Part shown: in pieces, positions 1 through 26,389 of the stretch
Numbering within the stretch: the first letter of the stretch is position 1
Layout of the letters: each line of letters opens with the position of its first letter
Source: a virus
Taxonomy: Duplodnaviria; Heunggongvirae; Uroviricota; Caudoviricetes
Length of the DNA: 64,000 bases
Virus record (IMG/VR): IMGVR_UViG_3300021979_000001
Coordinates: 66,948 to 130,947 of that record
Direction: 5' to 3' (one strand)
The notes under the pieces: model-generated
Database searches by the model: none
What the model was told of the DNA's origin: nothing
The model's input: only the letters and a program-made list of their open reading frames with translations
Position numbers and translations under genes: made by a program

Positions 1-540
1 ATGCACACCATCGCTATGACCGGCAGTCATTGATCCTGGGAATGATCCTGAAACGGTTCTACCGTCGCGATTGATAAAATCATCAATCAAAATAGCTTCA
101 CTGGGTCGCGGAACTGGCCCGTCAAGCACTTCTGCATAGCCATGCACCCCATATGCCCGATCAGTATACAGCATTGTCTCGCTGCCGGTTTCATGGGTCA
201 CTGTAATGGTAAAACGAACATACCCATCATCCAATGATGCACTATCTAATGCATTAATTGAAAATTTGCATAATGCGCGGGTAGCATCAATAATATCCAA
301 CTGCGTCGTGTATACAATTTCATCATTGTTGATAATATTAAGTTTCGGAACCATCGTTGATAAATCAACCGGTCTACGATCACCATCCAGAACAAACACA
401 TTAATATCGTTCGTAACGTTACGATAAATTTTGAAATCAGTGCGATTAACCGGGAAATTCATTGCGCTTGCTCCATCAGCAATGCCCGCAACAGTCAAAG
501 TAATCACTTGTGGTATGTAATAAACGCTGAATGCGGCCAT
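1..540 (-). CDS. Partial gene running off the window start; probable virion/baseplate structural protein
   Basis: Manually translated open frame from ATG 540 (MAAFSVYYIPQVITLTVAG...NRTDFKIYRNVTNDINVFVLDGDRRPVDL...), 180 codons with no stop; beta-rich; AATAAATA at 574-581 upstream. Not in the supplied ORF track. Confidence 0.6.
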   Translation of the reverse strand, partial: MAAFSVYYIPQVITLTVAGIADGASAMNFPVNRTDFKIYRNVTNDINVFVLDGDRRPVDLSTMVPKLNIINNDEIVYTTQLDIIDATRALCKFSINALDSASLDDGYVRFTITVTHETGSETMLYTDRAYGVHGYAEVLDGPVPRPSEAILIDDFINRDGRTVSGSFPGSMTAGHSDGVH

Positions 541-647
541 AATAAATCCAAATATAGTAAGAAAATTCAACATTATTTATTTAAAAATAACATATCATTT
601 TTATACGATTATAAATATTGACATATTAACCCAGGGTAAACTAATAA

Positions 648-1022
648 ATGACTAACGAAATTAAGAATATTTTAAACCAATTTCCTTTTCTTAGTTATGG
701 CTGTTTAAACGAAACACCATATTTGGGAATCGTTCAAAACAGTGATAATCAATTAATTTCGATGTATGTCATCGACTCAATCCCGACCGAAGACCTTAGA
801 AAGAAATTTCTTGCATATGGTGAAATTTGGTGGTGGGAATCAAACCGAACCATCCCAATCAATATTTTTCTCAAGGATAGGTTCAAACAGTTTAATGTTT
901 GTCTTAAACATTTTTCCCGAAAAGATTTTGAACTGATTGATGGACCGGCTGTTAGTCTGGCTGAAACTATTGCCAGACGTGTGAAAAAACGCCAGGTAAC
1001 TTTGGTCAGAAAAACTGACTAA
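648..1022 (+). CDS. Conserved jumbo-phage hypothetical protein
   Basis: 124-aa ORF with WWWESNRTIPINIF motif; perfect TATAAATA at 610-617 upstream. Confidence 0.7.
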   Translation: MTNEIKNILNQFPFLSYGCLNETPYLGIVQNSDNQLISMYVIDSIPTEDLRKKFLAYGEIWWWESNRTIPINIFLKDRFKQFNVCLKHFSRKDFELIDGPAVSLAETIARRVKKRQVTLVRKTD

Positions 1023-1530
1023 CGTATTCACCATATTTCAATAAAAACATAACCTTCGTGTCTTCATCGAAAATAAATAAAATCTGGTGATTATTTGCGC
1101 CTACGTAGGAACACCAATCGGCATTTGCTTTTGTTTCGTCAATCCATGCCAATACATCGGTGATTTTATTACATGGAACAAGGTAATACGAATACGGAAT
1201 GATTCCGATGATCTCTGCCACCAGACTCGTCATATTGTCTAGTTCTTCCATGTGTTTTTTTAAATTATCATTCAACAACATGATTTCATTATTTAAATCA
1301 TATAATTTGTCTCTTGCCTCTTGGACATTTTCTTTAGCATTATTCACACCATTAATTATATCGTCAAGATCGGTTTCCGTTTCAACCATGCCAATGTCAT
1401 TACATACGCTGGTTAACTCGTTTTCGGCAGTTTCGCACACCGAGTCAATTTGCGAACTGTTTTTCTCAATTGTTGCAACATTACTGGCATCAAGATCGGG
1501 AACAAACGCATAAAAATGATATTTTTCCAT
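1006..1530 (-). CDS. Hypothetical protein with coiled coil and C-terminal F-x-D...MFLLKYG motif
   Basis: 174-aa ORF; heptad-like middle; C-terminal motif recurs in other small ORFs of this window. Confidence 0.65.
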   Translation of the reverse strand: MEKYHFYAFVPDLDASNVATIEKNSSQIDSVCETAENELTSVCNDIGMVETETDLDDIINGVNNAKENVQEARDKLYDLNNEIMLLNDNLKKHMEELDNMTSLVAEIIGIIPYSYYLVPCNKITDVLAWIDETKANADWCSYVGANNHQILFIFDEDTKVMFLLKYGEYVSQFF

Positions 1531-6603: not shown

Positions 6604-7066
6604 CGACCAAATCCTTTACTTCACTATCCTGGTAACCGAGTTCTTCAACAAATGTTTGAAATGTTTCACTATTTAATTTAGATAAAATCAAGTCAATTTC
6701 CTGATCATTTGCTAGTGGGTATTTCTGCAAGATCACATCATCTAAAACATCTGATTTAACAACCACCCGTTTCGGCATAGGAATCCATTCGTGCGATTGT
6801 GCGACACCTAAACCGCATGTCACCATTGCCTTATAGTGCATGGAAGGGTCAGTTATATCGAAAAAGTTTAGATTTACGCGCTCGTTTACCGCATAGATAT
6901 AGTAGTCAGCATAATTGGGATTTTTGATAGCACTTAGCCAACGCATCACAACAAGAGGTTGGAATCCTTTTTTTTGATCATCGGATAACTGATCGAAAAA
7001 TAACATATCTTTACGATCAATTGCGCGCAAGGTGTCAAAAATATCCAATTTGTATCTGGTAGTCAT
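6509..7066 (-). CDS. gp62: Clamp-loader small subunit (T4 gp62-like)
   Basis: FQPLVVMRWLS, YAVNERVN..FFDI, HEWIP pattern recalled from T4-like gp62 family; replication context. Confidence 0.6.
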   Translation of the reverse strand: MTTRYKLDIFDTLRAIDRKDMLFFDQLSDDQKKGFQPLVVMRWLSAIKNPNYADYYIYAVNERVNLNFFDITDPSMHYKAMVTCGLGVAQSHEWIPMPKRVVVKSDVLDDVILQKYPLANDQEIDLILSKLNSETFQTFVEELGYQDSEVKDLVDAYEKYTGNGGGKKRNQKKTTKTGQRKKTKK

Positions 7067-7097
7067 AAAAGTATAATACCCATTTTTGATCGTTCTG

Positions 7098-7210
7098 TAT
7101 AAATAACTTTAGAAATAGATATTCGATGTATCTCCATGCGCGATTATCCCTAAAGCGTTTGGTGTTGCTCACCCCACACATTGCATAACAATGTGTGGGG
7201 TTTTCTTTTC
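7098..7210 (+). ncRNA. Candidate late-expressed small RNA
   Basis: TATAAATA 7098-7105, then a 12-bp hairpin (7172-7200) plus TTTTCTTTTC; no annotated plus-strand gene. Confidence 0.35.
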
Positions 7211-7309
7211 ATTACATGGCGGCGTAAAATGATAACATCAGCAAATGTATATTGATGATTATTGCCGCAGAAATAGTTTCACACGCCTGACCATAAACAA
7301 TATTATTCA

Positions 7310-8002
7310 TTACTTGTCACCCGTCGTGGATTTATTCGATGATGGTGCCTTTTTGCTTGTCGATTTTGTGGTGGTTTTTTTGGCTACTGGGGCGCGTTTG
7401 GTAGCGGGCGGGGCCTTGGGTGCTGTTTCTGTGGAAACGTCGTTGGTGGCTTGATTTACCCCCATGGCGGCGATGTTTTCATCAACGGTTGTATCAACAT
7501 GTTCAACATCTTCCTTATCATCTTTTTTCGATGATGATTGATCATCGTCCTTGTCAGATACATCTTCCTTGTCAGATACATCTTCCTTGTCAGATACATC
7601 TTCCTTGTCAGATACATCGTCCTTATCAGATACATCGTCGCGTGATGTGGCATCGTTTTTAAATACCAAAACCGACATAAATTCTAAAAAAATGTCATTC
7701 GCCTTATTCAAAGACCCACGTGACAATACCCGATCCAATTCCACCACCAAATCATCGCACCCCAATGCAAGATTGGTGTTTGTATTTGACATCACTGAAT
7801 GTAGTTTGTCATATGCCATACGCATATTTCCTTTACCATTCAATAACAAAATTTCGTCAAATATGGCATCAGAACCACGTTCTTCGGGCGAATGGGCTAA
7901 AAACATGTCAATTAAAATATCGACTACGCGGTTATTATTACCTTGTTTGATTGATCCTTCCAGGGTGATTAAACCATTTGTCAAATTCACATCATATGTC
8001 AT
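7310..8002 (-). CDS. Hypothetical protein with acidic DVSDKE repeats and Lys/Thr-rich tail
   Basis: 230-aa ORF; low-complexity C-terminal half. Confidence 0.7.
   Translation of the reverse strand: MTYDVNLTNGLITLEGSIKQGNNNRVVDILIDMFLAHSPEERGSDAIFDEILLLNGKGNMRMAYDKLHSVMSNTNTNLALGCDDLVVELDRVLSRGSLNKANDIFLEFMSVLVFKNDATSRDDVSDKDDVSDKEDVSDKEDVSDKEDVSDKDDDQSSSKKDDKEDVEHVDTTVDENIAAMGVNQATNDVSTETAPKAPPATKRAPVAKKTTTKSTSKKAPSSNKSTTGDK
7544..7633. repeat. In-frame tandem repeat, 5 x 18 bp
   Basis: Unit ATC(T/G)TCCTT(G/A)TCAGATAC at 7544, 7562, 7580, 7598, 7616. Confidence 0.95.
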
Positions 8003-8044
8003 TAGTATTATTAATCCTTATATCTATTGTTTTATGTGTCGCAA

Positions 8045-8548
8045 TCACGCAAATATTTTCGTGATGTCTAATGATTCCGGTAGTTTGTTGGTGTCCCTAA
8101 CAAAAAATGCGCATGGCGCATTTTCACCACTCCGCAATGGAACGGCAAGAATATGCCCCCATTTTAGCTTAGGCAAATTCCAAACAACATTGGGGTAAAT
8201 ATTATCAATTGATATTTCCATGAAATCAGGAATATATCCATTTATCGGGTTCATTGTGAACGCATCAAAATCCCGACCATTCAAATGTTTCAATTCGATA
8301 ATCTCAATATTGCCAATATTTTTATCGCCAATGACAATGGACCAGTCGAGAGGCATACGAATGCGATATTTGCCAATACTCAAATCTACTGCCGGACGTT
8401 CATAAACTTCAAGAAAAATCAATGGAATAAAATAAAAATCCACATCTGATTGATTTGAATAATCCAGAACACAATATCTAAGATCATCAATTTGATTGGG
8501 TAACTCATTCATATCGAATGTTTTATTTTCAGAAAGCATAACACGCAT
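8045..8548 (-). CDS. Conserved hypothetical protein next to UvsW
   Basis: 167-aa beta-rich ORF (YFIPLIFLE, MPLDWSIVIG, WNLPKLKWGHIL). Confidence 0.7.
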   Translation of the reverse strand: MRVMLSENKTFDMNELPNQIDDLRYCVLDYSNQSDVDFYFIPLIFLEVYERPAVDLSIGKYRIRMPLDWSIVIGDKNIGNIEIIELKHLNGRDFDAFTMNPINGYIPDFMEISIDNIYPNVVWNLPKLKWGHILAVPLRSGENAPCAFFVRDTNKLPESLDITKIFA

Positions 8549-19620: not shown

Positions 19621-20062
19621 ATTCATCATCTGATGATGCAGGGTATTGAGTTAAAACCGTTTCAATCATGTCGTGAAACATGATCATGTTTCCGAGCAGG
19701 GCTTGCGGCGAAAATCCCGAAAGCATATCACGCGGGATCATTGCTGAAATACGGTTCAAAACCGCACGATATTCAGCCGCTTCCTGTTCAGCCGGAGAAA
19801 GTGTGTCCGTGTCGTCAACAATTTCCCAATCAGTTTCAACGATTGGACACGTGTTATACCAAACACATTCCCCGTTAGGGCCACCCATCCCCACGATGTG
19901 GGTATAGATTTCGTCACCCATCTTTTTTAATGTCGGTTTAGAAACGTAACGTTTTCCTTCTACCGACAAATTGGTTTTGGTTTTCGAACCGGCACCGCGC
20001 ACATGAATTTGGTAACACGGGCAATAATACAGCCCAGTCGGTTTATGCCGAATGCGCCACAT
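19619..20062 (-). CDS. Hypothetical phage protein
   Basis: 147-aa ORF, MWRIRHKPTGLYY start. Confidence 0.65.
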   Translation of the reverse strand: MWRIRHKPTGLYYCPCYQIHVRGAGSKTKTNLSVEGKRYVSKPTLKKMGDEIYTHIVGMGGPNGECVWYNTCPIVETDWEIVDDTDTLSPAEQEAAEYRAVLNRISAMIPRDMLSGFSPQALLGNMIMFHDMIETVLTQYPASSDDE

Positions 20063-20065
20063 GGT

Positions 20066-20740
20066 TTATTCCCCAGCAAGAAGTTGTGAGACGCGTTCAA
20101 ACGCACGTTGGTCAGGGTCATCCGTTCCCTTGGTCGTTTTGATGGCAATGGTGCCAATCACTGGCAAAAGGGCAGTCAATGCGGATTTTGATTTTTTCCA
20201 AACCGCGTCAACGTTTTCTTGATCGATGATGATCGATGTTGATGGTTCTTGCTTCAAAAACAAATCCTGCGGCAAAAAGGGATTGTCCAGCAACGTTTTT
20301 GAAATTTTTTCGAGCAATTTTTCATTTGTTGCATATTTTGGGTTGATCAGATACGTGGTCACGCCCTTATCAACCGTTGTCGTCCCTACGCGATATTTTT
20401 TCAGAACCTTTGCATCATCGCCGGAAATTGCCGAATTTTTCGGCTTCATTTTGAACATGCATGTTGCCGACACATCGCCGTCAATTCCTTCGAAACTTTT
20501 CGGGCGGGCCTTCGATGCCGTTACCGATTCAACAAAACAATTCAAAATTTCGTCTTTTGTCTTGTTTTCCTGATCGGCCTTGATTTTGTTCAGGTATCCG
20601 ATCACACTGTTGATAGCAGAAATGATTTCAATACCATTAATATCGACGACCGGCATACTTTCTTTCTTCTTCTTACTTTCGGTCGGGATCGTTTCAGCAT
20701 TTTTGAAAATATTCATCATAATCCCCAATGTGTATTTCAT
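20066..20740 (-). CDS. Hypothetical protein
   Basis: 224-aa ORF. Confidence 0.65.
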   Translation of the reverse strand: MKYTLGIMMNIFKNAETIPTESKKKKESMPVVDINGIEIISAINSVIGYLNKIKADQENKTKDEILNCFVESVTASKARPKSFEGIDGDVSATCMFKMKPKNSAISGDDAKVLKKYRVGTTTVDKGVTTYLINPKYATNEKLLEKISKTLLDNPFLPQDLFLKQEPSTSIIIDQENVDAVWKKSKSALTALLPVIGTIAIKTTKGTDDPDQRAFERVSQLLAGE

Positions 20741-20788
20741 TTCGTGAAGTTCAAAATAAACGCTACTAATAAAATTGTCAACATGTTT

Positions 20789-22561
20789 TTACACCAAAAA
20801 TGGCATTGGATCAGAATCAAATACTTCATCATCCGAAATGTGTTCAAGCATTTCTTGCATGTCAATTTGATTTGATATTGATTCTAGCATGCGAACGATC
20901 AGCAAGGTCGCGCTCACCAAGTCATCATGCTCACCCGGCTTCGCAGAAAATGATGATTCTTTACGAACATAATTTTTCAATTCACGCAGCAATTGCCGAG
21001 AATTAATTTTCATACGATCACTTTCAACCAAACTTTTCAACCGGGCACACGATGATAATTTCTTTTTATTTGTTGTATTCAACCCTTTGCGAACACGGCG
21101 AGTTTGACCTCTACGTTTCTTCTCGTTTACCATGATCCCAGGGAATCGTTCAATACCAGTGTCCTCGATGACCAATAACACCGCCTCGCCTATCGAGTTG
21201 TTTTCGATAGTCCAATAAATTTCCGGTTCAAAATCACCAATATGATGTAATTCCGATTCAATAAACATCAGGATTCGCATCAAGGTCAACACTTGATCAC
21301 GCACTGGTGTGGTGTTATGTTGCCATTCGGCTACCTGCACCATGCCAGGCATTTCAAAAACTTGAATTGCCGCATTATCTCCTCCCGTTCCTAATGACGG
21401 ATCAAGACTCACCATATACACTTTTCCCGGTTCCGGTTCCTTATACCAACGCACAGTCCCGGTATAAAATTCAGGTTCTCGATAATCAAGTCGCGACAAG
21501 CATAATGACGACACCAGCGTTTCATCATCAGAAATAAATTCACAGCAAAATTCCTGCCTAAATCGGGCTTCCCCTAATTGCTCTCGGTAAGGTCGCGCCC
21601 AGTCTTCATCCCGTTCGGGATGCTCCCACCATGGAATACAAACCGGATAAAACCCGTTTTTACCAACCCCGCCATCATTAATATTACCATATTCATCCGT
21701 ATTATTAATCGCGCCTTTCCAAATTTGAGCGAACATATCCTCGTCCGATTTTGGTGTAGACGTGATAATGCATGATCCACCCGTTGAAAGTGTCGGTTGA
21801 ATAGCGGTAAAAAATTCAGTCTGTTTATTTGGTGGGACAAATGCAAATTCGTCCATGTAAAGTAATGTAATAGATAAACCACGACCCGCATCAGCAGATG
21901 TCGCACGACATGTAATTTTAGAATTATTGTCAAAAACAATAGTTCCTTTATTATATTCAGTGACGCCACATCTGATATAATCCGGGACGTTTTTATATGC
22001 ATACTTGATACGATCCATAATTTCGAGTGCTTGGCTTAACTTATTTGCCACAACAAGAATTGTCGTATCTTTAACAAACATAGCACGCCATAATAAGTAT
22101 GCGGCAGCACACGTCGTATTATGAGACAATATACCATCGGTATAATACAAATGATTCATTTTATCATTTGGATCATCCGTGTTAACTTCAACGCAATACA
22201 TATGGGTTCGGATATTTAATGATCGGGATGCAACTACTTCTTCTACACCATCTGATGTTTTAATTCGATCACCCGGCACCAAATCCATCATCCAGGCACA
22301 ACTATGATCTTCCCGGATCACACGATGCTTATCCGCAGCATATAACGTCTTCGTGCTAGTCTTTAATTCCCATACTTCATACGGAACTGTGCGAAATGCC
22401 CGATGAACCGTCCCAAAATCACTCTTGAAATTATGCTCTTGAATATGTGTGAATTTTTTAACATCGTTCGCAGAAATTTCATTTTTATTTCTATGATCGT
22501 TGTCTAAAATCCATAATGCAGCTTTAATCAAAATAATTAATAGTCTATTAATCATAACCAT
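20789..22561 (-). CDS. terL: Terminase large subunit, C-terminal half (IntC + C-extein)
   Basis: After HN/T: TTCAAAYLLW, GRGLSITLLYMDEFAF (Walker B), TSTP, nuclease VSLDPSLGTGGDNAA and HDDLV motifs of T4 gp17. Confidence 0.95.
   Translation of the reverse strand: MVMINRLLIILIKAALWILDNDHRNKNEISANDVKKFTHIQEHNFKSDFGTVHRAFRTVPYEVWELKTSTKTLYAADKHRVIREDHSCAWMMDLVPGDRIKTSDGVEEVVASRSLNIRTHMYCVEVNTDDPNDKMNHLYYTDGILSHNTTCAAAYLLWRAMFVKDTTILVVANKLSQALEIMDRIKYAYKNVPDYIRCGVTEYNKGTIVFDNNSKITCRATSADAGRGLSITLLYMDEFAFVPPNKQTEFFTAIQPTLSTGGSCIITSTPKSDEDMFAQIWKGAINNTDEYGNINDGGVGKNGFYPVCIPWWEHPERDEDWARPYREQLGEARFRQEFCCEFISDDETLVSSLCLSRLDYREPEFYTGTVRWYKEPEPGKVYMVSLDPSLGTGGDNAAIQVFEMPGMVQVAEWQHNTTPVRDQVLTLMRILMFIESELHHIGDFEPEIYWTIENNSIGEAVLLVIEDTGIERFPGIMVNEKKRRGQTRRVRKGLNTTNKKKLSSCARLKSLVESDRMKINSRQLLRELKNYVRKESSFSAKPGEHDDLVSATLLIVRMLESISNQIDMQEMLEHISDDEVFDSDPMPFLV
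22118..22561 (-). mobile_element. Split intein, C-terminal part (about 148 aa)
   Basis: Block B-like LYAADKH, block F MYCVEV, block G YYTDGILSHN followed by Thr+1. Confidence 0.9.
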
Positions 22562-22579
22562 TACAGTAGTTGTTTATGA

Positions 22580-22631
22580 TATTTATGCATAAATGGCAGA
22601 AAATAAGGAAAAACTGAAATTCACATAAATA
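22580..22631. promoter_or_regulatory. Divergent T4-like late promoters with a 14-bp palindrome
   Basis: CATAAATA on minus (22580-22587) and plus (22624-22631); ATTTATGCATAAAT palindrome 22581-22594. Confidence 0.55.
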
Positions 22632-22659
22632 TTAACAACGTTTATGTCGGGATAATCCA

Positions 22660-23580
22660 ATGGAATTGTGTGAACTATTCAACAATAAAACCAAACTTAC
22701 CGAGTTTATTGAAACTCGATCATTATATGACATAGCATATAACGAATTTTTGATTGCTATCCATAAATCAGCAACTTATGTAAAAAATAATAATGCTACC
22801 GACAGTTATTGGAAAGGAACAGTTCTTGATTTCATTCGAAATGCAGCAAATAAAACAATGGAATCAATTAATGAGAACTTTACTAACCATACCGTTACTA
22901 TGTTAGTAAAAGTTGTTAAAAGTTCTTCTATTGCTTCTGGGGGGGCATTTTCTATCTATAGCGATAGCACTTCTGCAATTAATATAAACATACCAGCCTC
23001 TTTTTTTGACAATGGGGCAGATTGGTTTGTCAATTTAATTGAAAATGGTGGGGATATTACATTCGCTAAAAATGCAGCACGAGTGTTGACACATGAATAC
23101 ATTCACCTCATGCAGCAATTGCAAATAACAAATAATATTTCTGCAACATCCGAAGTCCCAAAATTTAAGCGTGCATTAAAAAGAATTGGTAGTCCTAAAA
23201 AAATGGATAAATGGAATTACGATTCTCTTAACCATATGAAAAATAACCCAACCGATTATTATACACCTGATGAACAACAGGATGCCAAGGCAACATTATA
23301 TTTGTCTGGAAAAGATGAAGTGGATGCACATGCCTTAAATTCGGCACAAGAAATGATCGATGTTTTTGGATCAGCAACCAATGCACTAACTTATTTGACG
23401 CCAGGGAGATCGAAAGACCTGTTTAAAGAAATGAAAAATATACCACATCTTTACCAATTTCTGTTTTATGTGGGTCATAAATCCGCAACAAAATCATCAA
23501 AAAAACTGTTCTTTAAACGATTATATGCACACCTCAAACATTACCAAGATGCGGAACAACAAAATAATACCCCGGTGTAA
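22660..23580 (+). CDS. Zincin-like metallopeptidase
   Basis: VLTHEYIHLMQ (HExxH) with downstream Y-LSGKDEVDAHA third-ligand motif; leader MELCELF...LTE. Confidence 0.7.
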   Translation: MELCELFNNKTKLTEFIETRSLYDIAYNEFLIAIHKSATYVKNNNATDSYWKGTVLDFIRNAANKTMESINENFTNHTVTMLVKVVKSSSIASGGAFSIYSDSTSAININIPASFFDNGADWFVNLIENGGDITFAKNAARVLTHEYIHLMQQLQITNNISATSEVPKFKRALKRIGSPKKMDKWNYDSLNHMKNNPTDYYTPDEQQDAKATLYLSGKDEVDAHALNSAQEMIDVFGSATNALTYLTPGRSKDLFKEMKNIPHLYQFLFYVGHKSATKSSKKLFFKRLYAHLKHYQDAEQQNNTPV

Positions 23581-23595
23581 TTTCCGGGGTATTAT
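23564..23595. terminator. Bidirectional terminator
   Basis: 12-bp stem ATAATACCCCGG / CCGGGGTATTAT between convergent genes. Confidence 0.75.
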
Positions 23596-23598
23596 CAT

Positions 23599-24657
23599 TT
23601 ACATCATGAAGCCGATGCACATGCCTAATATCTTATCTGGATTTGTTCTATAATCATCTTCCCAAACAACCATCACATCGTAACCCTTATCTTTTAATTC
23701 ATCGAGTTTCTTTTTATCATATTCCCATTTTTCACTTGCTATAAATTGTCTTTTACCTTTAATTATATCAGTTGGTTTATAATATTTTGGGTTTGCGTGC
23801 CAATAATCCCCATTGAACTCAATAATTTTTTTAGATTGCTCACATAGACAATCAACTTTATAGATAGACGATCCTCGAATTGATCTTTCTTCTTTACCAT
23901 ATAATAATTTTTTATTTACAGATTTTTCTACTTCTTCAAATAAAGTAAACGACATTTTAGAATATCCACTATACATCCCTGATTTTTGTAGCGAATCTAA
24001 CCATTTTTCCTGGCGTTGTGTAAACCGTTCTTGTCCTTCATCTTCGCCATACCGTTCGACAAATTTTTCCAACGTATTCGTTGTTTGTCGTTCCTTTACC
24101 AGTTTTATCGCATCATCTTCGGTATGACCTTTATTAATCCAATATTCTTTCTGATTAGGGCGAAGATGGTATGTTGGGTCTTTTTCTTTGCGTTCGCGCA
24201 ATGTTTCCATAGCGCGGTCAATTCGATCTGTGTTTTCAGCATGCCATTTGGCAGAACAAGAAAACCCACAAAAGGCCGGGTATGACCATTTCATTTGTTG
24301 AAATTTCACTGATTTATGACATTGTTTACAAAATGGTTCGGCTCTTGCGGAACCATATTTTTCATCATTATGCAATTCATGCCATTCATCTGGCATATAT
24401 TTTTCGCCATATTGTAAAAAATATTCTTCATTTGTCATGCCAAGGTCAGTAATAGACCTGGCAAGATATTTTCGGGCAGCAAACCAAGTTTTGATGATAG
24501 GATTGTAATATTTCTTTTCGGCAAAGTTATAACTGCCTTCGCGAAAATAATGACCCGGATGATGTTCTTCCCCATGCTTTCGAAAACCATCCGGGCCACC
24601 AGTTAACTGTTCTTTACAAAGATTGCATGTTACTTTTTGTCTTATTCGTGTAGTCAT
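23599..24657 (-). CDS. Free-standing Vsr/DUF559-like homing endonuclease
   Basis: KVDCL...IIEFNGDYWHANP...KGYDVMVVWEDD nuclease domain; CxxC zinc-binding segments; lies between the split intein halves. Confidence 0.8.
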   Translation of the reverse strand: MTTRIRQKVTCNLCKEQLTGGPDGFRKHGEEHHPGHYFREGSYNFAEKKYYNPIIKTWFAARKYLARSITDLGMTNEEYFLQYGEKYMPDEWHELHNDEKYGSARAEPFCKQCHKSVKFQQMKWSYPAFCGFSCSAKWHAENTDRIDRAMETLRERKEKDPTYHLRPNQKEYWINKGHTEDDAIKLVKERQTTNTLEKFVERYGEDEGQERFTQRQEKWLDSLQKSGMYSGYSKMSFTLFEEVEKSVNKKLLYGKEERSIRGSSIYKVDCLCEQSKKIIEFNGDYWHANPKYYKPTDIIKGKRQFIASEKWEYDKKKLDELKDKGYDVMVVWEDDYRTNPDKILGMCIGFMM

Positions 24658-24709
24658 AGATTCTTTTCCCTAGGAAGTTCTATGACTATTTATCAAGTTG
24701 GAAACTGTT

Positions 24710-25120
24710 CTACGAATTGATTGTTATCGACAATAACTTTTTCTCTAAATAGTTTACGATCCGGTCTCTAATCCGCAGTTTTACAAGGTTTCCAATTTGT
24801 TCAACATCACCATCTTTTATTATACAAGTTTCATGTGTAGAACATTTGCCCATTTGCCGCGATGTCATTCCAATACTAAAACGATTTTCGTGGAATGCTT
24901 CGAGCATTTCGTGCTGGAAAGGATATAACTTGAAAGGCAGGGCACCTTTCGTTGGATGCTGAATTTTCACAAAACGATCAAAAAAGAAAAATGGATCAAC
25001 CGTGCATTTTGCAAGTTCTTGTGCTTCTTTTTTTGTATATGTCGAAACCGTATTTGGGCGTTTTACTTCATCATCTGGAATCATGTTATTTGACATTATT
25101 TTTAAAGGGGTTTCCCCCAT
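24710..25120 (-). CDS. terL: Terminase large subunit, N-terminal half (N-extein + IntN)
   Basis: DPFFF..FVKIQHPTKG..PFKLYPFQ..SRQMGK, then Cys1 of the intein. Confidence 0.95.
   Translation of the reverse strand: MGETPLKIMSNNMIPDDEVKRPNTVSTYTKKEAQELAKCTVDPFFFFDRFVKIQHPTKGALPFKLYPFQHEMLEAFHENRFSIGMTSRQMGKCSTHETCIIKDGDVEQIGNLVKLRIRDRIVNYLEKKLLSITINS
24713..24844 (-). mobile_element. Split intein, N-terminal part (44 aa)
   Basis: CSTHETCIIKDGDVEQIGNL block A directly after RQMGK; ORF stops 44 codons later. Confidence 0.85.
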
Positions 25121-25190
25121 CCTTTGTGTAGGTTTACCTTATATTTATGCGTTAAGTGCCAACATAACGTATCATTTGGTTAAATCCTTT

Positions 25191-25358
25191 TATAAATATC
25201 CATAAGAAGTTGTAACCGCACTTAAATTACCCATCTTGTGGCATGATTTCTTAGACCTTTGCTCGGCCCCTCCTAACCGCGTAAAGATATACGAAGAAGG
25301 CATAGAACGATCACAGTCCAGGCTGACTGACCTAAGCCGACGTGATCGTTCTTTTTTT
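25191..25358 (+). ncRNA. Candidate late small RNA with anti-SD-like motif
   Basis: TATAAATA 25191-25198; CCTCCT 25269-25274; long hairpin 25304-25352 followed by T7. Confidence 0.35.
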
Positions 25359-25410
25359 GTTGACTATTGTTTTATAAACAGTATCGTGGTAGTGTTTTTA
25401 ACCAATAGGT

Positions 25411-25950
25411 ATGATGATGTCTTCGACCAAAACGTTATATGTTTGTCGCAAATCTAAAAAGACATATAAATCAAAACATGGTTACCGCAATTTTATTAAA
25501 ATGCGGGCAATTAACCAATACGATAATCTGGTCAAGTCCTATATTATGGATTATTTCAGTCAAATCACATCATTAGATGAATTATCTATTTTGATTCATG
25601 AGTGTTATCCAATGGTGGTTCGAGTATTAAATGGACGTAATTGGATTTTTACCAAAACAAATGTCACTATTCCGGCAAACCATATCCATATACATCATAA
25701 TAATAAGACATATAATATTTCAAGGGAATGGCTTGACCAGTTACCACGCAACACTACCAAGGATTTGATACCCTGTTGGGGCATCATAATTGAAGTAGGT
25801 CAGTCAAATACCAATAGTTATTTTTCGGACGTGATGGATTATATGCCATTTATGGATGTGTCCATGGGTGTTGGTAACACCTATGTCGAATGCTTCATTC
25901 GCAAAGAATATAATGTCGCAATTGCGGTTATGGCAAAAATGAAATCATGA
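25411..25950 (+). CDS. Hypothetical protein
   Basis: 179-aa ORF; TTGACT-N16-TATCGT upstream (25360-25387). Confidence 0.65.
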   Translation: MMMSSTKTLYVCRKSKKTYKSKHGYRNFIKMRAINQYDNLVKSYIMDYFSQITSLDELSILIHECYPMVVRVLNGRNWIFTKTNVTIPANHIHIHHNNKTYNISREWLDQLPRNTTKDLIPCWGIIIEVGQSNTNSYFSDVMDYMPFMDVSMGVGNTYVECFIRKEYNVAIAVMAKMKS

Positions 25951-25957
25951 TTTGGAC

Positions 25958-25993
25958 AAAAAAAGCTGCATGAAATTAATCATGCAGCTTTTT
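25958..25993. terminator. Bidirectional terminator
   Basis: AAAAGCTGCATGA / TCATGCAGCTTTT. Confidence 0.75.
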
Positions 25994-25996
25994 CGG

Positions 25997-26389
25997 TTAC
26001 ATCAACTTTGATACCATTATCACAGTATCATCATTGAATAACAACTTATCTGGATTATCTGGATCAGCAATCATTATCAACAAACGGTTAAAAATGCTTT
26101 TGTTCGCAGAGAAAACGTTGTTGTAGTTTGCCTTCTCCATATAATGCCGTATTTGGCATAACTCAATATGGACGGGTTCCCATTGATCTTCTAGTCCATG
26201 ACACGAACAATGCGAGCCATTCACCCAGTATAGGTTACCATTTTTTATAAAGACAACATCTGCATCACCCTGATAAAACTCGTATTCGTATGATGCAAAT
26301 ATTACCACACCATCAATACTTGAAATACCAAACTCTTTACAAATGTCGCCATCGTTCGAAAATTCACCGTAATACATAATATCCTCCAT
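25997..26389 (-). CDS. Hypothetical phage protein
   Basis: 130 aa, ASYEYEFYQGDA..GSHCSCHGLEDQWEP motif; SD GGAGG; TTGACA-N18-TAGAAT at 26482-26453. Confidence 0.7.
   Translation of the reverse strand: MEDIMYYGEFSNDGDICKEFGISSIDGVVIFASYEYEFYQGDADVVFIKNGNLYWVNGSHCSCHGLEDQWEPVHIELCQIRHYMEKANYNNVFSANKSIFNRLLIMIADPDNPDKLLFNDDTVIMVSKLM

Follow-up and report, generated by a model that had tools for sequence, protein, structure and literature searches.

A 64,000-nt stretch of viral DNA (the window), comprising bases 66948–130947 of the 457,165-bp IMG/VR record IMGVR_UViG_3300021979_000001 (a 457-kb phage), carries the gene for the large subunit of the terminase (TerL) in two halves, each of which bears one part of an intein. 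Both halves lie on the same strand with a start and a stop codon of their own, and 2148 nt separate the stop of the first (terL-N) from the start of the second (terL-C). This gap holds two open reading frames (ORFs), one on the minus strand for a putative endonuclease of 352 amino acids (aa) and one on the plus strand for a protein of 306 aa, referred to as ORF306. The ORF listing agrees with a preliminary description of the stretch, which had reported two same-strand terL halves about 2.15 kb apart with separate starts and stops; the two ORFs also read as described there, SRQMGK being followed by CSTHET in the first and ILSHN by TTCAAAYLLW in the second. The N-extein ends FSIGMTSRQMGK and gives way to the N-intein, which runs from CSTHETCIIK to SITINS and the stop codon. 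In the second half, residues 1–148 form the C-intein, which ends HLYYTDGILSHN, and the C-extein then opens TTCAAAYLLWRAMF. The coordinates of all features are given in Table 1.

The exteins correspond to two consecutive parts of T4 gp17 (3EZK). Residues 18–92 of the N-extein match gp17 residues 92–166, which end SRQLGK, and residues 1–423 of the C-extein match gp17 residues 167–565, which start TT (E 4e-41). As the first match stops at K166 and the second begins at T167, the break lies inside Walker A, between Lys and Thr, and the RQMGKTT that the preliminary description had obtained by joining the exteins is indeed the Walker A of T4 gp17. Using the C-extein as query, 15 related IMG/VR loci were retrieved. 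In 11 of them N-extein residue 92 is joined in frame to C-extein residue 1, the junction reading RQ[MTAS]GK[TS]T. Removal of the intein restores a contiguous, conserved TerL, as seen both in these 11 intein-less alleles and in the order of the gp17 matches (92–166, then 167–565), and on this sequence evidence the extein junction is no chance match. Both halves fall in PHROG terminase families, the N half in phrog_5989 and phrog_36964 (terminase large subunit). The Pfam matches of terL-C (PF03237 and PF17289; Terminase_6N and Terminase_6C) are confined to the C half, from residue 149 onward. Within the 890 positions of the phrog_36964 profile, the N half covers 18–117 and the C half 417–862, a split pattern that fits a profile built from intein-containing terminases.

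The virus record has a completeness of 100% according to CheckV. That no intact terL exists elsewhere is the outcome of protein, profile (PF03237, PF03354 and PF04466) and tblastn searches, all of which find one terL. The genome contains a single match to the C-extein and a single match to PF03237; PF03354 matches weakly at the same place, PF04466 has zero matches in the whole genome, and tblastn of all locus pieces against the whole genome reveals no second copy.

Table 1. Features of the fractured terL locus (positions in the window).
Feature	Position	Strand	Remarks
terL-N ORF	24710-25120	minus	136 aa; residues 1-92 N-extein, 93-136 N-intein; ORF listing
terL N-extein	24845..25120	minus	residues 1-92; ends in first half of Walker A (SRQMGK); phrog_5989 and phrog_36964, T4 gp17 alignment
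N-intein, 44 aa	24713..24844	minus	aligned with six other N-halves and P0034; stop codon 24710-24712
Putative endonuclease gene, 352 aa	23599..24657	minus	free-standing; between terL halves
ORF306, 306 aa	22660..23580	plus	gene for HExxH protein on opposite strand, between terL halves
terL-C ORF	20789-22561	minus	590 aa; residues 1-148 C-intein, 149-590 C-extein; ORF listing
C-intein, 148 aa	22118..22561	minus	HINT core with N-terminal helix; 49 homologues
terL C-extein, 442 aa	20792..22117	minus	second half of Walker A (TT..), remaining ATPase, RNaseH-like nuclease; stop codon 20789-20791
ATAAATA promoter-like motif	25142..25148	minus	28 nt before terL-N start codon
ATAAATA promoter-like motif	24687..24693	minus	36 nt before endonuclease start codon
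ATAAATA promoter-like motif	22580..22586	minus	25 nt before terL-C start codon; in 98-nt divergent region common with ORF306
ATAAATA promoter-like motif	22625..22631	plus	35 nt before ORF306 start codon
Hairpin, perfect 12-bp stem ATAATACCCCGG / CCGGGGTATTAT	23563..23596		between convergent stops of ORF306 and the endonuclease gene

The split intein and its family

An amphipathic helix is predicted to follow block A of the N-intein, C-S-T-H-E-T-C-I. The nucleophile, Cys93, comes directly after SRQMGK. Among eight aligned N-halves, one of them from the unsplit relative P0034 (730 aa, encoded on a 2.5-kb contig), position 1 is Cys in five and Ser in three, and block A follows the pattern x-x-x-[DENS]-T-x-[IV]. 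The C-intein opens with a helix (..LLWILDNDHR..) and contains block B (A-D-K-H) and blocks F/G (..HMYCVEV..HLYYTDGILSHN). In 34 aligned C-halves, the Ala, Asp and His of block B (A-D-x-H) are invariant, and so is S-H-N/T, which spans block G and position +1 (residues 146–149 of the C half in the window; here and below, the slash marks the boundary between intein and extein). A search limited to residues 1–150 of the C half gave 49 proteins in which the C-intein domain is fused to TerL (41–72% identity), several of them from contigs of 290–576 kb. Over the 25 full-length homologues, mean identity to the window sequence is 59% for the C-intein and 55% for the C-extein, and the intein piece is thus constrained at least as much as the TerL enzyme.

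When the family profile was compared with solved inteins, VidaL came first (E 4e-10), then Spl DnaX and gp41-1; CatC was matched at E 0.069. To model the HINT domain, P0034 was used as a stand-in for the N- and C-intein of the window. MAFFT misplaced the short N-halves onto the C-intein, and the alignment for structure prediction was therefore made without them. With this family alignment, the AlphaFold2 model of the P0034 intein region (residues 75–295) had a mean predicted local distance difference test score (pLDDT) of 80, the core exceeding 90. All of the top 50 Foldseek matches of this model in the PDB are inteins or related HINT-type domains, VidaL ranking first (E 3e-7; root-mean-square deviation 1.1 Å over 99 columns) and Cat eleventh. 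In the model, the N piece ends and the C piece begins with a helix, the two helices being separated by a short turn; according to the model and the alignment of 34 sequences, the strongly conserved LLWxLDxDHR sits in this second helix, at the start of the C piece. As judged from its motifs and from the modelled relative, the split element is a class 1 intein with the HINT fold.

An early split after the first helix corresponds to the S2-type atypical split of the published nomenclature, for which natural N-inteins of 15–37 aa are quoted (PMC13014065); with 44 aa, the N-intein in the window is longer. AceL-TerL and GOS-TerL consist of N-inteins of 25–37 aa and C-inteins of 104–115 aa with Cys at +1. 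The window intein shares with these two and with Cat (6DSL) the TerL host, a short N-intein combined with a long C-intein, the S2 break after the first helix (PMC13014065) and class 1 residues, and differs from them in the size of its pieces (44 and 148 aa), in Thr at +1 and in the weakness of the profile match to CatC (E 0.069). By its sequence, it would work as these early S2-type inteins do without being a member of their sequence family. VidaL (6VGV), another natural atypical split, is the nearest solved intein both by family profile (E 4e-10) and by fold. It is split after strand beta2, with an N-intein of 16 aa (PMC13014065), whereas the split in the window comes later, after the helix, and identity between the two is about 24%.

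Relatives with an intein at the same site

Across relatives, intein-less, contiguous and split forms, the latter with or without an endonuclease, are found at the same site, which is the comparison that the preliminary description had put forward. Among deposited phages, the best match is Atu_ph07 (NC_042013; 490,380 bp), a cultured, plaque-forming Agrobacterium phage whose TerL-C is 58.5% identical over residues 20–573, C-intein included. Its gp110 (123 aa, ...CGRQLGK/SVHKSTDITY...) and gp109 (602 aa, ...TNGILSHN/TTVAAAY...), both in L027:3561-5752, carry an intein of this family at an identical position in the P-loop, the N-intein being of 42 aa and the C-intein of about 148 aa. Unlike those in the window, the Atu_ph07 halves are adjacent (11-nt gap) and have neither an endonuclease nor an extra gene between them, and the nucleophile is Ser1 instead of Cys1. 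Both gp110 and gp109 are annotated as 'terminase large subunit', that is, the split has been called as two terminase pieces, as had been predicted for such loci. The word 'intein' does not appear in the Atu_ph07 genome paper, nor in the relevant parts of two later jumbo-phage papers, and we found no description of this intein family in jumbo phages, or of the split terL of Atu_ph07, in a literature of which our coverage is incomplete. A plaque-forming phage with the same split is the strongest indirect support for the joining of the halves.

P0034 is the unsplit form. It has Ser1 (...GRQIGK/SEVFDT...), about seven residues read through the stop and start of the split forms, and together they are a natural contiguous/split pair. 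A further contiguous element, a 328-aa LAGLIDADG maxi-intein, occupies the identical P-loop point in another locus (L012:5017-6000; GK/ALSLDT...THN/TT); it opens with Ala, which is not the usual class 1 start. In L005, a split intein at the same point has an N piece of 37 aa, a gap of 26 nt and a C piece of 123 aa, with no endonuclease, and L021 and L023 also lack the endonuclease, their halves being adjacent or overlapping. In L019 an endonuclease gene lies between the terL halves.

Two loci are broken more than once. In L025:5413-9201, on a 56-kb contig, terL is divided into three ORFs by a second early-split intein located after C-extein residue 192; the N half is followed by the endonuclease, then by a middle piece that combines C-intein 1, the ATPase and a short N-intein 2, and finally by a 369-aa piece (C-intein 2 and nuclease). 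In L026:42-8449, on a 130-kb contig, terL is again in three pieces, scattered over both strands with the nuclease piece 6 kb away: the middle piece at 7001-8113 (plus), the N half at 8081-8449 (minus), overlapping the 3′ end of the middle piece, and the nuclease at 42-1151 (minus). Only joining at the protein level explains such an arrangement.

A pattern scan with the intein alignment yielded 459 matching IMG/VR stretches, 80 of which were retrieved for analysis of the gap. Among these 80, the distance from the end of the N-extein to the start of the C-extein ranges from about 465 to 3705 nt. In L036:3752-7786 the gap is occupied by the endonuclease and an ORF of 172 aa with a phosphatase-like motif, HCNAGQSRS (HCxxGxxRS), both of them antisense, and by an ORF of 187 aa; the 3.7-kb gap in L039:1559-6844 has the endonuclease and four further unrelated ORFs on the same strand. 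Among the sequences compared, the clade shows very little constraint on how the split site is arranged.

Two observations concern inteins outside these comparisons. The protein P0012 (610 aa, 137-kb contig) has a C-intein 63% identical to that in the window, and the extein that follows is 27% identical; this suggests either a transfer of the intein from one terL lineage to a distant one or an unusual host protein. In the same phage as the window and outside it, the gene for the large subunit of ribonucleotide reductase is also fractured (L029:85-3243, equivalent to G000:C1:46881-50039). Its first ORF (579 aa) ends ...KLSNL/CFAPDT... with an N-intein of about 120 aa, and the second (424 aa) has a C-intein of about 34 aa (...GHIVHN/CTEILEV); the gap is of about 145 nt, with no endonuclease, and there is a match to PF14890 (E 7e-18).

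Genes and expression signals in the gap

The 352-aa protein has a Cys/His zinc-finger-like motif at its N terminus and a Vsr/DUF559-like nuclease domain (..IEFNGDYWHANP..WE..) at its C terminus. It scores 21.8 bits against PF04480 (DUF559), for which the cut-off is 20.6, and matches phrog_22677 and phrog_3339, 'homing endonuclease' being among these families. There are 242 homologues, some of them named Vsr by JGI. Eight residues are invariant in 45 homologues including that in the window (D269, E280, G283, H287, P290, W311, D314 and W332), and the Vsr-type catalytic core, made up of Asp, Glu and His in ..E..GD.WH.. and a later Asp, is present as D269, E280, H287 and D314. The Vsr-like endonuclease claimed to lie between the halves is borne out by the Pfam score above the cut-off and by these invariant core residues. 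Alignments of the core with Vsr (1VSR/1ODG) and with I-Bth0305I (3R3P) are weak, at E 0.45–0.8. With the I-Bth0305I/Vsr family (PMC3239194) the protein shares the pattern E..GD.WH...D...WE, the DUF559 match and the position between split-intein halves; the weak similarity, and N-terminal two-thirds with Cys/His motifs and no assigned fold, set it apart. Homologues are located between the terL halves not only in L019 and L025 but in about 40 of 80 further loci. From its sequence and position, we take the 352-aa protein to be the free-standing homing endonuclease of the split-intein element, for which the endonuclease-less alleles of L021, L023 and Atu_ph07 could be cleavage targets.

ORF306 contains the motif HEYIH at residues 145–149 (HExxH). 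A paralogue in the same genome (G000:C1:312716-313534) has HEYFH, and three distant homologues are metagenomic; H-E-x-x-H-x-x-Q and a downstream Glu are invariant in the five sequences. Neither Pfam nor PHROG gave a match for ORF306, a word-index homologue search returned ORF306 alone, and a PDB sequence search returned nothing. The AlphaFold2 model has a pLDDT of 72. Foldseek found nothing in the PDB for it at E 0.001 or better, VIA-align wide gave Z scores of 7.6 or lower, at the level of helical bundles, with zincins at 4.4–6.3, and structural neighbours in the atlas include U49, WLM, M78 and M48 at weak template modelling scores (0.29–0.41). ORF306 is possibly a zincin-like metallopeptidase.

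The opposite-strand gene had been singled out as a feature not recognised from known fractured loci. ORF306 is a real gene in the gap, but it is less of a novelty than that suggests: gaps with extra genes do exist elsewhere, L036 having three genes, two of them antisense, and L039 five. Because extra or opposite-strand genes occur between the halves in L036 and L039, ORF306 appears as a tolerated insertion and not as a special design, and it would be tolerated because trans-splicing frees the halves from adjacency or co-transcription. We read ORF306 as a real, self-contained gene that was inserted independently into the gap and does not form part of the intein/endonuclease element. Its sole clear relative, a paralogue, is encoded at another site of this genome, which points to an intragenomic origin. 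The paralogue (272 aa; L018:717-1535) is a lone plus-strand gene amid minus-strand ORFs, and its translation probably begins at an ATG that lies 15 nt beyond the first GTG; its upstream region offers no clear picture of a promoter or terminator. No convincing repeats or target-site duplication flank ORF306. A direct repeat of 26 nt (85% identical) links 23315-23340, within ORF306, to 23606-23631, in the 3′ end of the endonuclease gene, and could be due to chance or be a trace of recombination.

The alternative is that ORF306 is functional cargo, e.g., a protease that assists homing by acting on a host factor, on the intein or on the endonuclease. Its location inside the element, its own promoter-like motif and the HExxH..Q..E kept in its few homologues would be in keeping with such a role. 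We nevertheless regard it as unlikely: no match to ORF306 was found in any of the related loci searched (L003-L017, L019-L026 and L030-L109), the only clear relative lies elsewhere in the genome, and other gaps contain different genes (a phosphatase-like ORF in L036; four unrelated ORFs in L039).

Regarding expression, 87 copies of the heptamer ATAAATA lie within 80 nt upstream of the 481 crude gene calls made for the genome, against about 11 expected (8-fold), and its position peaks sharply 30–44 nt before the start codon. Five copies are found in 20000–26000, four of them 25–36 nt upstream of the genes of the locus and in the correct orientation. By position and sequence, ATAAATA looks like the T4-late-like promoter core of this phage. 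A copy at 25192-25198 (plus) is back-to-back with the terL-N motif. The 9-mer CATAAATAT was rejected as an over-represented motif (eight copies in the window vs. 3.7 expected, not significant); the signal sits in ATAAATA. The hairpin between the two convergent stops was listed by the terminator scan as a 13-pair stem on the minus strand, and is likely a terminator. The four genes are likely expressed from four separately started transcripts, one per gene.

Proposed joining of the TerL halves and its alternatives

We consider it very probable that the phage's only TerL gene is a fractured gene whose product is joined by protein trans-splicing. The trans-splicing itself we infer from sequence, and the same applies to promoter use, endonuclease activity and any enzymatic role of ORF306. 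In the mechanism that we propose, an intein between the Lys and the Thr of Walker A would have been broken early, after its first strands and helix, into pieces of 44 and 148 aa. Each terL half would be transcribed from its own late-type ATAAATA promoter, and the two polypeptides would associate, docking probably being aided by the terminal helix of the N-intein and the initial helix of the C-intein; in the unsplit relative, these would form a continuous helix-turn-helix. The rebuilt HINT domain would then perform class 1 trans-splicing (acyl shift at Cys1, attack by Thr+1, cyclisation of Asn148 and O-to-N shift), the product being a TerL of 534 aa with an intact SRQMGKTT P-loop.

Several observations weigh against this interpretation. 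Block B carries Ala in place of the Thr found in most inteins (TxxH). The N-intein part of the P0034 model has zero alignment depth and pLDDT values of 31–60, and the long helix predicted over block A is unreliable because of this low confidence at no alignment depth. A complex prediction with residues 1–160 of the C half and 81–136 of the N half scored 0.00; as it relied on single-sequence folding and the partner had a pLDDT below 50, it is evidence neither way. The endonuclease resembles solved Vsr structures weakly in sequence (E about 0.7), and no clear Shine-Dalgarno sequence is present upstream of terL-C. Lastly, the virus record is a metagenome assembly classed as linear, so that genome completeness is an estimate.

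The halves might also assemble non-covalently, as in the fragmented NrdA of the Aeromonas phage Aeh1, the intein pieces being mere docking domains and no peptide bond being formed. Non-covalent assembly of the product of an endonuclease-split gene is documented (PMC3045599), and the helical tails at the split ends could serve as a dimerisation module. However, about 190 aa of intein would then stay in the P-loop between GK and T, and Cys/Ser1, the block-B His, the penultimate His, the terminal Asn and Thr+1 are all invariant in the family, which is more than docking alone would require. This possibility is accordingly given little credence. Less probable still is that the terminase has lost its function and is decaying, the genome being defective or misassembled. 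The metagenomic origin of the assembly and the missing terminal repeats would suit it, but both halves and the endonuclease gene are intact ORFs, the intein is conserved equally with TerL, the genome contains no other terminase, and its architecture is shared by many independent contigs of 100–576 kb and by the cultured Atu_ph07. Joining of the halves as RNA, through a group I or II intron or RNA trans-splicing, can practically be dismissed: self-splicing phage introns with Vsr-like endonuclease genes exist, e.g., in recA of phage 0305phi8-36 (PMC2677866), but the Rfam scan of 20000–26000 at E up to 1, which bears on the RNA-level joining that the preliminary description had raised as a counter-reading, shows no sign of an intron (three chance-level matches only), each half starts and stops by itself and has its own promoter-like motif, the halves are separated by an antisense gene and a strong hairpin, and intein blocks are present on both sides of the break.

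The layout of a terminase fractured by a split intein is known since 2009. A fractured gene as defined by Dassa et al. (2009; PMC2677866) comprises two host ORFs, a split-intein half on each and a free-standing endonuclease gene between them. The locus in the window has this composition, with the opposite-strand ORF306 falling outside the definition, and its placement among known fractured genes and atypically split TerL inteins, as first suggested, agrees with that work. Half of the fractured loci with a free-standing endonuclease gene reported there have a Vsr-like one. Among the loci with a free-standing endonuclease gene is that of a gp17-like myovirus terminase (GOS, Lake Gatun) split into two ORFs by a split intein, which was alone among the fractured genes in being broken at an unusual point, its 122-aa C part having all N motifs but N1 (Dassa et al., 2009; PMC2677866). 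The TerL in the window is likewise gp17-like and split in two ORFs by an atypically split intein. Compared by description, it differs in its C-intein of 148 aa with a conserved N-terminal helix, in the second, opposite-strand gene in the gap, and in belonging to a complete 457-kb genome. The novelty of the locus is modest and lies in two features: a long-piece, helical-tail subfamily that also occurs in a cultured jumbo phage, and the toleration, in the gap, of an antisense gene unrelated to the element.

Protein trans-splicing of the fractured TerL, the explanation that we favour, has several consequences. As annotation lists loci of this kind, even that of the cultured Atu_ph07, as a pair of broken or duplicate terL genes, TerL phylogenies and completeness checks can go wrong. 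A further natural early-split intein, with Cys1 and Thr+1, an N piece of 42–44 aa and possible helical docking tails, would be at hand for protein engineering. The antisense ORF306 chiefly illustrates how the gap between split-intein halves tolerates insertions. For the phage, an essential late enzyme would depend on protein trans-splicing, and a culturable relative is available. It is conceivable, and we advance it tentatively, that in the jumbo-phage clade that includes Atu_ph07 the intein has turned from a passing parasite into a fixed, selected joining device whose helical tails may pair unlinked halves; the gap would gather autonomous genes, such as ORF306 and those in L036 and L039, terL pieces could scatter as in L026, and packaging may be gated by splicing, through the redox state of Cys1 or through the separate promoters.

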